A DNA stretch of 8,933 nt from IMG/VR virus record IMGVR_UViG_2681813273_000009; one strand, given 5' to 3'. Below are positions 3,006 to 7,110 of the stretch, piece by piece (position 1 is the stretch's first letter; each line of letters begins with the position of its first letter). Under the pieces are notes generated by a model, which worked only from the letters and a program-made list of their open reading frames with translations, was not told where the DNA came from and did no database searches. Both the position numbers and the translations under genes were made by a program. Source of the stretch: a virus. Lineage: Duplodnaviria; Heunggongvirae; Uroviricota; Caudoviricetes.

Positions 3006-3386
3006 ATGACCGAGCGCATAGAATTTGTTTTACCTTACCCGCCGACGGTGAACACTTACTGGCGTCGTCGTGGCAGCACATATTTTGTATCAAAAGCCGG
3101 GGAGCGTTATCGCCGGGCAGTGGCGCTTATTGTTCGCCAGCAGCGGCTGAAATTAAGCCTGTCCGGAAGGTTGGCAATAAAAATTATTGCAGAACCACCG
3201 GATAAGCGCCGCCGTGACCTGGACAATATTCTGAAAGCGCCGCTGGATGCGCTGACGCATGCGGGGTTGCTAATGGACGATGAGCAGTTTGATGAAATCA
3301 ATATCGTTCGTGCTCAGCCAGTATCTGGTGGACGTCTGGGGGTGAAGATTTATCCCATAATGCTTGAAGGGCAGGTCAAAAAATGA
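3006..3386 (+). CDS. rusA: Crossover junction endodeoxyribonuclease RusA (Holliday junction resolvase)
   Basis: 126-aa ORF with LPYPPTVNTYWRRRG near the N-terminus and DLDNILKAPLDALTHAGLLMDDEQF, recognised as RusA family. ATG directly follows the upstream TAA; its stop overlaps the Q start (ATGA). Confidence 0.9.
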   Translation: MTERIEFVLPYPPTVNTYWRRRGSTYFVSKAGERYRRAVALIVRQQRLKLSLSGRLAIKIIAEPPDKRRRDLDNILKAPLDALTHAGLLMDDEQFDEINIVRAQPVSGGRLGVKIYPIMLEGQVKK

Positions 3387-4128
3387 AACTGGAAGATTTA
3401 CCGAAATACTACTCCCCAAAATCCCCCGGCCTGACTGATGCATCGGCCTCAACGTCGAAAGATGCGCTGAGTATCACTGATGTGATGGCCGCGCAGGGCA
3501 TGACACAGAATCGGGCTGAGATGGGGGTTTCTGCGTTCCTTGGGAAAATGGGCATTAGTATGAATGACAGAGAGCGGGCAACAGAATTGCTGACAGAATA
3601 TGCACTCAGTCGGTGTGATCGCGTGGCGGCGTTAAGAAAACTCCCGGCAGAAATAAAACCGGCAGTGATGCGTATTATGGCTTCGTATGCGTTTGAAGAT
3701 TATGCCCGTAGCGCGGCGAGCAAAAAACAGTGCCCCTGCTGTCACGGAAAAAAATTTATTGAAAGCGAGGTTTTTACAAACAAGATCCAGTATCCGGATG
3801 GTAAGCCGCCGGTATGGGCAAAGTGTACGAAAGGTGTGTATCCGTCTTACTGGGAAGAATGGAAAAAAGTCAGGGAGGTGGTAAAAGTTGCCTGTCCGGA
3901 GTGTGGCGGAAAGGGTGAGGTTTCCACCGCCTGTAAGGATTGCCGTGGGCGTGGTGTCGCCATTCATCGTGAAGAGTCGGTAAAACGTGGTATGCCTGTT
4001 ATCAGAGACTGCCAGCGTTGTGGTGGTCGTGGCTATGAAAGACTACCATCAACGGAGGCATTTAATGCTATATGCGAGGTGACAAACCAGATAACACGCG
4101 CGTCATGGGAAAAAACAGTTAAGAAATT
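3383..4128 (+). pseudogene. Q-like antiterminator, upstream copy, truncated after about 248 codons at the repeat junction
   Basis: Same reading frame and near-identical protein to the 4411..5265 ORF until position 4128; the track ORF 3383..4414 then continues in frame into the rusA 3' sequence. Confidence 0.5.
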
Positions 4129-4129
4129 N

Positions 4130-4414
4130 GAGCGTTATCGCCGGGCAGTGGCGCTTATTGTTCGCCAGCAGCGGCTGAAATTAAGCCTGTCCGGAAGGTT
4201 GGCAATAAAAATTATTGCAGAACCACCGGATAAGCGCCGCCGTGACCTGGACAATATTCTGAAAGCGCCGCTGGATGCGCTGACGCATGCGGGGTTGCTA
4301 ATGGACGATGAGCAGTTTGATGAAATCAATATCGTTCGTGCTCAGCCAGTATCTGGTGGACGTCTGGGGGTGAAGATTTACCCCATAATGCATGAAGAGC
4401 AGGTCAAAAAATGA
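4130..4414 (+). pseudogene. rusA 3' fragment (second copy), lacking its own start
   Basis: Encodes ERYRRAVALIV...IMHEEQVKK, equivalent to RusA residues ~33-126; no upstream rusA start in this copy. Confidence 0.5.
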
Positions 4415-5265
4415 AACTGGAAGATTTACCGAAATACTACTCCCCAAAATCCCCTTGCCTGACCGATGCATCGGCCTCAACGTCAAAAGATGCGCTGAGT
4501 ATCACTGATGTGATGGCCGCGCAGGGCATGACACAGAATCGGGCTGAGATGGGGTTTTCTGCGTTCCTGGGGAAAATGGGCATCAGTATGAATGACAGGG
4601 CGCGGGCAACAGAATTACTGGCAGATTATGCACTCAGTCGGTGCGATCGTGTGGCGGCGTTGAGAAAACTTCCGGCAGAAATAAAACCGGTAGTGATGCG
4701 CATTATGGCTTCGTACGCTTTTGAGGATTATGCCCGCAGCGCAGCGAGTAAAAAGCAGTGCCCTTGTTGCTATGGGGAAAAATTTATTGAAAGCGTAGTT
4801 TTTACAAACAAGGTCCAGTATCCGGATGGTAAGCCGCCGGTATGGGCAAAGTGTACGAAAGGTGTGTATCCGTCTTACTGGGAAGAATGGAAAAAAGTCA
4901 GGGAGGTGGTAAAAGTTGCCTGTCCGGAGTGTGGCGGAAAGGGTGAGGTTTCCACCGCCTGTAAGGATTGCCGTGGGCGTGGTGTCGCCATTCATCGTGA
5001 AGAGTCGGTAAAACGTGGTATGCCTGTTATCAGAGACTGCCAGCGTTGTGGTGGTCGTGGCTATGAAAGACTACCATCAACGGAGGCATTTAATGCTATA
5101 TGCGAGGTGACAAACCAGATAACACGCGCGTCATGGGAAAAAACAGTTAAGAAATTTTATGATGCGCTGGTGACCCGGTTTGATATTGAAGAAGCATGGG
5201 CTGAGCGGCAGTTAAAAAAGGTAACTAGGTTGATTTTTCCGGAATCTGTGGTAAATTCGTCATAA
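4411..5265 (+). CDS. Putative late-gene antiterminator Q-like protein (284 aa) with DnaJ-type CxxCxGxG zinc-finger repeats
   Basis: Assignment rests on position (directly after rusA, directly before a PR'-like promoter and tR' terminator). Contains CPCCYGEK, CPECGGKG, CKDCRGRG, CQRCGGRG. Confidence 0.6.
   Translation: MKLEDLPKYYSPKSPCLTDASASTSKDALSITDVMAAQGMTQNRAEMGFSAFLGKMGISMNDRARATELLADYALSRCDRVAALRKLPAEIKPVVMRIMASYAFEDYARSAASKKQCPCCYGEKFIESVVFTNKVQYPDGKPPVWAKCTKGVYPSYWEEWKKVREVVKVACPECGGKGEVSTACKDCRGRGVAIHREESVKRGMPVIRDCQRCGGRGYERLPSTEAFNAICEVTNQITRASWEKTVKKFYDALVTRFDIEEAWAERQLKKVTRLIFPESVVNSS
5230..5257 (+). promoter_or_regulatory. PR'-like late promoter overlapping the 3' end of Q
   Basis: TTGATT (5230-5235), 16-nt spacer, TG-n-TAAATT extended -10 (5249-5257); followed about 45 nt later by an intrinsic terminator, as expected for a Q-modified short transcript. 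Confidence 0.4.
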
Positions 5266-5305
5266 CTATGGGCGTTTTATGCCTGACGTTAGAAGAGTTT
5301 CTACA

Positions 5306-5330
5306 ACCCGCCGCCGAGCGGGTTTTTTAT
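5306..5330 (+). terminator. tR'-like rho-independent terminator (copy A)
   Basis: Stem acccgc/gcgggt with loop cgccga, then tttttat. Confidence 0.6.
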
Positions 5331-5502
5331 NNNNNNNNNNNNNNNNTATGATGCGCTGGTGACCCGGTTTGATATTGAAGAAGCATGGGCTGAGCGGCAG
5401 TTAAAAAAGGTAACTAGGTAACAAGGTTGATTTTTCCGGAATCTGTGGTAAATTCGTCATAACGATGGGCGTTTTATGCCTGACGTTAGAAGAGTTTCTA
5501 CA

Positions 5503-5527
5503 ACCCGCCGCCGAGCGGGTTTTTTAT
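5503..5527 (+). terminator. tR'-like rho-independent terminator (copy B, after the N-run)
   Basis: Same hairpin and T-run as copy A. Confidence 0.6.
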
Positions 5528-5645
5528 GACTGAAATCGCGTCAGTACAGTAAACGCGCTGGTGGCGGTGAATACCTGTCTTTCAGCTTGCTGGCTTTTTC
5601 GACAAGAGTTATTGGTGTGTCACGTTAACCGGAAAAGGAAAAGAC

Positions 5646-5843
5646 ATGCTAAAACAGCAGGATATGACAGAAACCGCCAGAGTGGTGTTTAATGAATTAA
5701 GCGTTACCGAACCGGCGACAGTCGGGGAGATAGCGCAGAATACTTACCTTTCACGCGAACGCTGCCAGTTAATACTGACCCAGCTGGTTATGGCGGGTCT
5801 GGCAGACTATCAGTTCGGTTGTTACAGACGCCTTCCGCAGTGA
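5646..5843 (+). CDS. Small hypothetical protein, 65 aa, possible helix-turn-helix DNA-binding protein
   Basis: AAGGAAAAG 6-8 nt upstream of ATG 5646; segment TVGEIAQNTYLSRERCQLILTQLV resembles an HTH; stop lies inside a terminator hairpin. Confidence 0.5.
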   Translation: MLKQQDMTETARVVFNELSVTEPATVGEIAQNTYLSRERCQLILTQLVMAGLADYQFGCYRRLPQ

Positions 5844-5857
5844 AGGCTTTTTTATTT
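5830..5857 (+). terminator. Rho-independent terminator following the small ORF
   Basis: Stem gccttc/gaaggc (5830-5835 and 5842-5847), loop cgcagt, then tttttt a ttt. Confidence 0.6.
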
Positions 5858-5872
5858 GTGGTAAATGGGCGG

Positions 5873-5899
5873 CTGGTGGGTGTTAGGGGCACCCACCAG
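5873..5899. promoter_or_regulatory. Perfect 10-bp inverted repeat (ctggtgggtg-ttagggg-cacccaccag)
   Basis: Read directly; not followed by a T-run, so more likely a protein-binding site or RNA structure than a terminator. A second palindrome CTGCTTT-gcgca-AAAGCAG lies at 5943-5961. Confidence 0.4.
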
Positions 5900-5993
5900 C
5901 CATCTGCTCATGCGTTGGGTTCACAAGCAAACCTCAGGCCCACTGCTTTGCGCAAAAGCAGAATGAGCCTATCAGAGACAGGCTTAATGATCC

Positions 5994-7070
5994 ATGCTTA
6001 ATACTGTAAAAATATCCAGTTGTGAGTTAATCAACGCCGACTGCCTGGAATTTATCCGGTCGTTACCCGAAAATTCTGTTGACCTGATAGTCACGGACCC
6101 GCCNNNNNNNNNNNNNNNNNNGTACTTTAAAGTGAAGCCTGAGGGCTGGGATAACCAGTGGAAGGGCGACGATGATTACCTGAAGTGGCTGGACCAGTGT
6201 CTGGCGCAGTTCTGGCGGGTGCTGAAACCTGCCGGAAGTCTTTACCTGTTCTGTGGTCATCGCCTGGCATCTGATATCGAAATCATGATGCGTGAACGCT
6301 TCAGTGTGCTGAACCATATTATCTGGGCGAAGCCGTCCGGACGCTGGAACGGATGCAACAAGGAAAGCCTGCGGGCGTATTTCCCCGCCACAGAGCGCAT
6401 TCTGTTCGCGGAACATTATCAGGGGCCGTATCGTCCGAAAGATGCCGGGTATGCGGCGAAGGGCAGTGCACTGAAACAGCATGTGATGGCCCCGCTGATT
6501 TCTTACTTTCGTGATGCGCGAGCTGCCCTGGGGATAACGGCAAAACAGATTGCAGATGCCACAGGAAAGAAAAACATGGTGTCGCACTGGTTCAGTGCCG
6601 GTCAGTGGCAGTTGCCGAATGAAAGCGATTATCTGAAATTACAGGCGCTGTTTGCCCGGGTGGCAGAAGAGAAGCATCGGCGTGGTGAACTGGAAAAGCT
6701 CCACCACCAGCTGGTGGATACGTATACCTCACTGAACCGGCAGTATGCGGAGCTGCTGAGTGAATATAAACATCTGCGGCGGTATTTTGGCGTGACGGTG
6801 CAGGTGCCGTATACCGATGTGTGGACGCATAAACCGGTGCAGTTCTATCCCGGGAAACATCCGTGCGAAAAACCGGCAGAAATGCTGCAGCAGATAATCA
6901 GCGCTAGCAGTCGTCCGGGTGACCTGATTGCAGATTTTTTCATGGGGTTGGGTTCGACAGTGAAAGCGGCACTGGCGCTCGGGCGTCGTGCAATTGGCGT
7001 TGAGCTGGAGACTGAACGTTTTGAGCAGACGGTTCGGGAAGTACAGGATTTAGTCAGCCAGAACGGATGA
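5994..7070 (+). CDS. Beta-class DNA amino-methyltransferase (N6-adenine or N4-cytosine), orphan
   Basis: 358-aa ORF; N-terminal DLIVTDPP then an 18-nt N-run over the rest of motif IV; C-terminal AdoMet-binding motif I DLIADFFMGLGST. Motif order IV then I indicates beta class. No restriction endonuclease gene nearby. Confidence 0.85.
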   Translation: MLNTVKISSCELINADCLEFIRSLPENSVDLIVTDPXXXXXXXYFKVKPEGWDNQWKGDDDYLKWLDQCLAQFWRVLKPAGSLYLFCGHRLASDIEIMMRERFSVLNHIIWAKPSGRWNGCNKESLRAYFPATERILFAEHYQGPYRPKDAGYAAKGSALKQHVMAPLISYFRDARAALGITAKQIADATGKKNMVSHWFSAGQWQLPNESDYLKLQALFARVAEEKHRRGELEKLHHQLVDTYTSLNRQYAELLSEYKHLRRYFGVTVQVPYTDVWTHKPVQFYPGKHPCEKPAEMLQQIISASSRPGDLIADFFMGLGSTVKAALALGRRAIGVELETERFEQTVREVQDLVSQNG

Positions 7071-7110
7071 TATTGAAGAATTAATTACGCGTCGTTATTA
7101 TGCGGCTCCC

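Follow-up and report, generated by a model that had tools for sequence, protein, structure and literature searches.

A common lambdoid prophage late-operon cassette with an M.EcoGII-type methyltransferase gene, a linked winged-helix gene and a conserved, covarying leader

Results

A late-operon cassette behind Q

We analysed an 8,933-nucleotide (nt) stretch of Caudoviricetes DNA (IMG/VR record IMGVR_UViG_2681813273_000009; "the window" denotes this whole stretch), with emphasis on the segment at positions 5646-7070, which encodes a 65-amino-acid (aa) winged-helix (wH) protein and a DNA methyltransferase (MTase) separated by a conserved leader. In the window we recognise a lambdoid prophage's late regulatory region: a hok/sok module, a DUF968/HNH gene, rusA and a Q gene of the PF03589 zinc-finger type are followed by a PR'-like promoter, a tR' terminator, two open reading frames (ORFs), three transfer RNA (tRNA) genes and the small RNA (sRNA) STnc100. 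An earlier sequence-only reading of the same DNA had described the segment as a late-operon accessory cassette, located downstream of a PR'-like promoter and tR', in which a small helix-turn-helix (HTH)-type ORF with a terminator of its own precedes an orphan beta-class MTase. This outline stands: the 65-aa ORF is present (5646-5843, + strand) and is modelled as a winged helix, its stop codon is overlapped by a hairpin and T-run, the MTase matches PF01555, and both genes follow Q, the promoter and the terminator in that order.

The PR'-like late promoter lies directly 3' of Q on the + strand (5427-5466) and consists of a -35 element TTGATT (5427-5432), a -10 element TAAATT (5449-5454) and a -10-like pause element AACGAT (5461-5466). 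The pause element has the spacing of lambda PR' (TAAATT, 6 nt and AACGATGGG). The promoter was read from the sequence; because of its score of 8/12, a simple promoter scan did not list it. Further downstream, a terminator scan identified two intrinsic terminators on the + strand, each a GC-rich hairpin with a T-run: the tR'-like terminator at 5502-5527 (hairpin AACCCGCCGCCGAGCGGGTT, 5502-5521, plus TTTTAT) and another over the stop codon of the small ORF at 5830-5853 (hairpin GCCTTCCGCAGTGAAGGC, 5830-5847, plus TTTTTT). A second copy of tR' is found at 5305-5324, ahead of a run of Ns at 5331-5346. No sigma-70-like match was found upstream of the small ORF or the MTase gene in a promoter scan of positions 5100-7500. 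With two terminators and no promoter match upstream of it, the MTase gene is predicted to be silent in the lysogen. The sole match of the scan (TTGAAG-17-TATTAT, 7073-7101) lies between the MTase stop codon and the first tRNA gene, and the tRNA cluster may have a promoter of its own.

Ahead of the leader, 47 of 52 related loci, among them loci lacking the small ORF, likewise have a GC-rich hairpin, whose sequence is very variable; it may belong to the MTase unit as a built-in terminator or insulator. For this count, the presence of the hairpin alone was used; the automatic count of Us after it was unreliable, as the minimum free energy (MFE) folds added outer pairs. In the related loci, the hairpin is situated about 55 nt 5' of the leader, whatever the gene upstream, and is usually followed by UUUCUGCUGUG.

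The methyltransferase belongs to the M.EcoGII family

The gene for an M.EcoGII-family beta-class N6-adenine DNA MTase (5994-7070, + strand) comprises 352 codons and a stop codon once the Ns within it are removed. Its product matches Pfam PF01555 (N6_N4_Mtase) with 126.9 bits (cutoff 26.7; E = 1.5e-36), and both PADLOC and Pfam place it among the type II beta-class MTases. The motifs follow the order IV, target-recognition domain (TRD), I. As expected of beta-class N6/N4 MTases, a (D/S)PP(Y/F) motif IV is located near the N-terminus (GAC CCG CC|G TAC); a TRD-like HTH segment spans roughly residues 135-260, and the FxGxG of motif I (FFMGLG, residues 309-314) follows the central TRD near the C-terminus. 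The class assigned by the sequence-only reading is thus upheld, whereas the length of 358 aa that it gave is not: the Ns are empty (see below), and the product is therefore 352 aa long.

Over its full length, the protein is identical to M.EcoGII at 324 of 353 aligned positions (~92%), a lower bound since the M.EcoGII sequence was taken from Table S1 of PMC11551740 as machine-read PDF text with character-recognition errors. A protein of an E. coli O121 prophage, which its annotation calls DNA-methyltransferase, is 97% identical to it. The best phage match, phage 1720a-02, has the same layout as the window and was named by Murray et al. as bearing an MTase very similar to M.EcoGII (PMC5778455). 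No solved structure of a close relative was found, the best matches in the Protein Data Bank (PDB) having E-values of about 1e-21. For M.EcoGII, adenine methylation does not depend on sequence context; constitutive expression is deleterious, and lysogens do not express the enzyme (PMC5778455). Judged by its sequence, the enzyme studied here is a close relative of this characterised non-specific N6-methyladenine (m6A) MTase. The sequence-only reading had counted the lack of a strain-specific methylation motif as evidence against the gene's function, which is not valid: because M.EcoGII, ~92% identical, is non-specific and silent in lysogens, no strain-specific motif is expected, and its absence from a lysogen would not speak against function in this family.

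The cassette is widespread. Among 5426 complete E. coli genomes, 2347 (about 43%) have a match, as do 249 phage records, the majority Shiga toxin (Stx)-converting. In both Stx2a phages and prophages of E. coli, Q is followed by the small ORF, the methylase gene and three tRNA genes, then by stx or other cargo, nanS-p and holin. Stx2a- and Stx2d-converting phages and 1720a-02 share 94% DNA identity with the window over the cassette and the same order from Q to the tRNA genes. Unlike in the Stx2a and Stx2d phages, no stx genes follow the tRNAs of the window, and its Q is of the PF03589 zinc-finger type, in contrast to the 126-aa Q of Stx2_95. Four different Q families precede the cassette in Klebsiella, Salmonella, Buttiauxella and Citrobacter. 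No endonuclease gene lies beside the MTase gene in the window or in any related locus whose gene content was inspected, in agreement with the earlier observation that a partner endonuclease is lacking. An anti-restriction function, also raised at that stage for the orphan MTase, is the accepted inference for the M.EcoGII family (PMC5778455).

A single substitution in motif I distinguishes this allele. The S-adenosylmethionine (SAM)-binding motif DFFMGLGST (6933-6959, + strand) carries S313L, encoded by TTG at 6948-6950 where relatives have TCG, and a leucine thus occupies the place of the usually invariant serine between the two glycines. Among family members in the fetched loci, 146 of 147 have the serine (DFFMGSGST), as do all seven aligned relatives; leucine occurs solely in the IMG/VR contig L200, which is identical to the window. 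The allele may be hypomorphic, inactive or neutral. The possibility that S313L in the FxGSG loop has impaired catalysis, and that the gene is decaying cargo of a cryptic prophage, draws on this conservation and on the location of the residue within motif I. We nevertheless consider it rather unlikely: the remainder of the ORF is intact and conserved alike, the formal FxGxG pattern is retained, and the same allele occurs in L200, an independent record, though possibly one from the same or a related genome. An E. albertii locus (L013) was rejected as the source of the window at 94-97% identity.

A conserved leader with RNA-type covariation

The 150-nt intergenic region between the two genes is the most conserved part of the locus. 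Between genera, the ~130 nt upstream of the ATG are 77-95% identical, compared with 40-50% for the third codon positions of the MTase gene in the same comparisons. This sequence contains a conserved, predicted structured RNA leader (5864-5993, + strand), made up of a three-way junction and a hairpin (5864-5961), followed by a conserved single-stranded tail (5962-5993). Its stems are P0' (5866-5870/5938-5942), the P1 hairpin (5871-5901), P2 (5903-5908/5926-5931) and the P3 hairpin (5943-5961). No Shine-Dalgarno sequence precedes the MTase ATG.

The leader stays with the MTase gene. Where the small ORF is missing, it is kept and directly follows tR' or unrelated genes, and in Stx2c phages the match to the window begins at 5863. 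In viral contigs, a 21-mer of the leader is followed by the MTase gene in 114 of 121 occurrences; the exceptions are contig ends or remnants in which the MTase has been replaced. In four IMG/VR loci (L109, L147, L173 and L192), only the 5' part of the leader, with a degenerate P1, is left and the MTase has been replaced; about 50 nt past the 21-mer, these loci have AT-rich DNA that carries a TATAAT-like box, and an ORF of ~240 aa. The cargo seems to have been exchanged here, with the junction lying within the leader.

Conservation of 5864-5993 could also stem from an element acting at the DNA level, such as a promoter, a protein site or a recombination boundary, instead of a functional RNA. 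Most positions are invariant, unpaired ones included, and the element marks the 5' boundary of a mobile MTase unit, with remnants persisting where the MTase has been replaced. The pattern of substitutions makes such an explanation improbable. When 44 loci were aligned with MAFFT, an unbiased mutual-information scan yielded one pair that stands out, 5905-5929, which is Watson-Crick or G.U paired in 43 of 43 sequences through four pair types (C-G 20, A-U 12, U-A 7 and U.G 4). Because the U.G wobbles are strand-specific, the RNA was assigned to the + strand. Divergent copies, including those of Pseudocitrobacter (L058), a Vibrio plasmid (L067) and loci L039 and L213, retain every helix with different sequences. 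Folded singly and independently by MFE, most of seven diverse sequences adopted this architecture, with z-scores of about -4 and down to -4.5, and the promoter scan gave no match in this region.

A covariance model built on this structure produced one match per locus, always on the + strand ahead of the MTase gene, in 53 of 65 loci. In the model-fitted alignment, 96.3% of cells were paired, and 21 of 28 pairs showed compensatory changes, as opposed to 4.0 +/- 1.3 in shuffles and 3-7 in slid controls. Three alternative helices, RNAalifold's P0 (AUGGGC/GCUCAU), P4 (GGCCCAC/GUGAGCC) and a long-range P5 (GGUCA/UGAUC, beside the AUG), fit the sequences and show no covariation beyond conservation.

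None of the 4227 families of Rfam 15 matched the leader at the gathering threshold, matches in the window at E <= 10 were at chance level alone, and four diverse loci similarly gave no leader match. Neither the sequence nor a description of the leader was found in the searchable literature corpus, where absence is no proof of novelty. Several candidate identities were rejected. The prophage anti-sRNAs AgvB and AsxR sit 3' of a moron coding sequence, and Pas/STnc100 sRNAs are located elsewhere, STnc100 being at 8600-8789. Coding potential, either as an ORF at 5819-6001 or as an upstream ORF from the conserved RTGAGCC, is contradicted by indels of 1-2 nt among relatives, which break the frames. 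A hammerhead is at odds with the junction sequences, and other ribozyme classes as well as SAM and S-adenosylhomocysteine (SAH) riboswitches yielded no scoring Rfam model. The leader is probably an undescribed RNA.

A winged-helix protein linked to the methyltransferase

The small ORF belongs to phrog_331 (PHROGs). Using a diverse alignment, AlphaFold2 predicted helices at residues 9-16, 26-33 and 37-49 and a beta hairpin, the wing, at 53-62, at a pLDDT (predicted local distance difference test) of 93.4; a model from a shallow alignment (25 sequences, >=80% identity) scored 59 and was discarded in favour of the deeper one. Foldseek returned generic wH domains of the MarR/IclR type alone, namely OhrR, SarZ, the IclR N-terminal domain and an O-methyltransferase dimerisation domain. 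The model reached TM scores of 0.8-0.86 to OhrR and SarZ; at 65 aa, it is without the MarR dimerisation helices. The top structural neighbours include the N-terminal wH dimerisation domains of the SAM-dependent O-methyltransferases RedM, DsyB and PigF. This may merely reflect how common the wH fold is, yet beta-class DNA MTases act as dimers. In sequence searches, Pfam TrmB (PF01978) scored 18 bits, below its cutoff of 25.6, no HTH_3/Xre match was obtained from Pfam, NCBIfam and PADLOC gave no match, and a profile of the family found nothing significant among PDB sequences.

Homologues fall into 334 clusters in Escherichia, Shigella, Salmonella, Klebsiella, Citrobacter and Buttiauxella, and the family is narrow, with 84 representative clusters in 1.84 billion proteins. 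Wherever an estimate of dS was possible, it was at or close to saturation, and dN/dS is 0.03-0.07. The small ORF is a real gene under strong purifying selection. It is missing in about 16 of 43 close MTase relatives; where present, it is without exception located immediately upstream of an M.EcoGII-type gene, behind four Q families and in lineages where its product is only 35-41% identical. So deep a linkage suggests a functional partnership. We speculate that the protein could regulate the enzyme, act as its partner or bind hypermethylated DNA; wH domains are able to sense N6-methyladenine (PMC11037411). On two metagenome contigs (L220 and L221), a 41%-identical member of the small wH family is encoded downstream of a MethyltransfD12 gene of Dam-like type, and an IS element comes next, an arrangement which hints that the small protein is associated with adenine MTases of more than one class.

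The sequence-only reading had likened the pair to a controller (C) protein with its MTase and had raised the palindromes at 5873-5899 and 5943-5961 as possible binding sites of the small protein. A small protein of DNA-binding type is indeed encoded upstream of the MTase, and two inverted repeats do lie in between, at 5871-5901 and 5943-5961. As an account of the locus, however, a C protein and MTase left over from a restriction-modification system are very improbable. C proteins have an Xre-type HTH of about 80 aa and an adjacent cognate endonuclease, whereas this protein has a MarR/IclR-like wH fold, no locus with inspected gene content has an endonuclease, and the pair sits in a Q-antiterminated operon in which neither gene has a sigma-70-like match upstream. 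The repeats themselves are stems P1 and P3 of the leader: they are conserved with the MTase where the small ORF is missing, and they show + strand RNA-type covariation with G.U pairs. We therefore do not retain them as operators.

The N-run in motif IV is an empty gap

Motif IV (6096-6125, + strand) reads GAC CCG CC[N18]G TAC and is split by an 18-N run at 6104-6121. The sequence-only reading held that this run covers most of the DPPY motif and that catalytic integrity could not be judged. Comparison with relatives leads to a different view: the run is a zero-length assembly gap and not masked sequence, as every relative is without these 18 positions. The E. coli O121 and Stx2_95 phage copies have GACCCGCC and GTAC, the two flanks, with nothing in between, which gives D-P-P-Y; the join without extra bases is GACCCGCCGTAC. 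Contig L200 and window positions 5540-7110, with the Ns deleted, are 100% identical over 1553 nt with no gaps, and contiguous TDPPYF is present in 186 of 186 family members from the fetched loci. On these comparisons, the N-run is empty and motif IV of the MTase is intact. That the Ns hide a real 18-nt (six-codon) insertion or lesion disrupting the MTase is an idea to which we give hardly any credence, for although the run is in frame, falls exactly inside DPPY and, unlike the other N-runs, has no flanking repeats, L200 is gaplessly identical, all relatives join GACCCGCC straight to GTAC and no family member interrupts TDPPYF.

Scaffold quality and neighbouring genes

The scaffold is a poor draft in which slightly different alleles from several similar prophages are concatenated. 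Of its six N-runs, all except 6104-6121 precede repeats of earlier window sequence. The run at 512-576 is followed by 577-643, identical to 445-511, the 67 nt just before the run; after the N at 4129, positions 4130-4429 equal 3102-3401; after 5331-5346, positions 5347-5527 resemble 5158-5330; after the N at 7474, positions 7475-7611 resemble 7078-7214; and after 8499-8504, positions 8505-8636 equal 7342-7473. Because prophage alleles are strung together in this manner, RusA/Q, PR'-tR' and the tRNA cluster appear doubled. A fused 343-aa "Q-RusA" ORF at 3383-4414 is likewise a by-product of the concatenation. The N-runs of this scaffold are thus assembly joins and not masking, and motif calls across them need comparison with relatives.

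Downstream of the cassette, the tRNA cluster (7111-7360, + strand) comprises a CAT-anticodon tRNA (Ile in the RefSeq annotation of relatives), Arg-TCG and Arg-TCT, as identified by ARAGORN, Rfam and the annotation of relatives, an arrangement that is the same as in Stx phages. STnc100, a prophage sRNA, has a full-length Rfam match (123.6 bits) at 8600-8789; a 2026 preprint relates it to PasD sRNAs, which are found near Q (PF03589) genes. At the other end of the window, a hok/sok-type type I toxin-antitoxin module occupies 1044-1369, with an Rfam sok match of 112 bits (1044-1219) and a 70-aa ORF (1157-1369) that has a Hok-like hydrophobic core; the O121 prophage (L002) has an annotated HokD gene in the corresponding position.

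Discussion

Overall, the region is very probably a common accessory cassette of lambdoid and Stx prophage late operons, consisting of Q, PR', tR', the wH gene, a terminator, the ~130-nt leader, an orphan M.EcoGII-type MTase and tRNAs, which would be silent until Q antitermination and would serve in anti-restriction. The mechanism that we propose joins what was read directly at the locus (gene identities, synteny, the intact DPPY, the empty N-gap, two terminators, and the conservation and covariation of the leader) to lambda-type late regulation and M.EcoGII biology. In a lysogen, transcripts from the constitutive PR' would meet two stops, tR' first and then the terminator that follows the small ORF (5853). 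After induction, in lytic growth, only Q-modified polymerase would read through. The MTase would then hypermethylate adenines of replicating phage DNA, which could provide cover against many adenine-methylation-sensitive restriction systems. As inferred from M.EcoGII, the enzyme would methylate adenines in any context and be toxic if constitutive, and it would be kept silent in the lysogen because of this toxicity.

The leader may add a layer of post-transcriptional control on the toxic product, most likely by acting in cis on translation or stability of the MTase mRNA. As a tentative hypothesis, in which our confidence falls somewhat short of even, we suggest that positions 5864-5961 represent an undescribed class of cis-regulatory RNA that gates the translation or stability of toxic M.EcoGII-family mRNAs across Enterobacterales prophages. 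The 65-aa wH protein may be the protein partner of this RNA, or a reader or shield of hypermethylated DNA.

Several observations weigh against these interpretations. S313L, unique among 147 relatives, could weaken SAM binding, and many of the ~29 residue differences from M.EcoGII lie in the target-recognition region, making an altered specificity possible. In other genera, interruptions of the U-tract behind the second hairpin are frequent, and this terminator may be weak. As for the leader, most helices are near-invariant, and beyond the one outstanding pair the covariation comes from few divergent sequences and a model-fitted alignment. The leader may pair with the start region (GGUCA/UGAUC), or its P2 loop with the bases just before the AUG, yet such pairing shows no significant covariation.

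The closest described enzymes are M.EcoGII and M.EcoGI, non-specific adenine DNA (and RNA) MTases of prophages of E. coli O104:H4 C227-11 (Murray et al. 2018, PMC5778455). M.EcoGII and the MTase of the window are alike in their beta-class motif order (DPPY, central TRD, FxGxG), in size class (349 versus 352 aa) and in being prophage-borne orphans, and near-identical alleles (97%) bear the same leader. The window MTase differs by its ~29 substitutions, a C-terminus longer by three residues and S313L. C protein and MTase pairs of type II restriction-modification systems share with the cassette a small protein of DNA-binding fold encoded just upstream of the MTase. The pair described here is set apart from them by a winged helix in place of an Xre-type HTH, by the lack of an endonuclease and of a promoter or C-box of its own, and by its place in a Q-antiterminated late operon. 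Described cis-regulatory 5' leaders, such as riboswitches and protein-binding leaders, resemble the leader in having a shared multi-stem structure on the coding strand upstream of one gene family, with covariation. Unlike them, it matches none of the 4227 Rfam 15 families, and no expression platform was identified in it.

M.EcoGII finds wide use as a reagent. Characterisation of the enzyme family dates from 2018, and a cassette found in about 43% of complete E. coli genomes is in itself an ordinary finding. The cassette is a known and very common module, of which the leader and the linked wH protein alone merit follow-up. Together, a covarying leader without a Shine-Dalgarno sequence and a tightly linked wH protein provide two testable handles on how phages control a toxic M.EcoGII-type enzyme.

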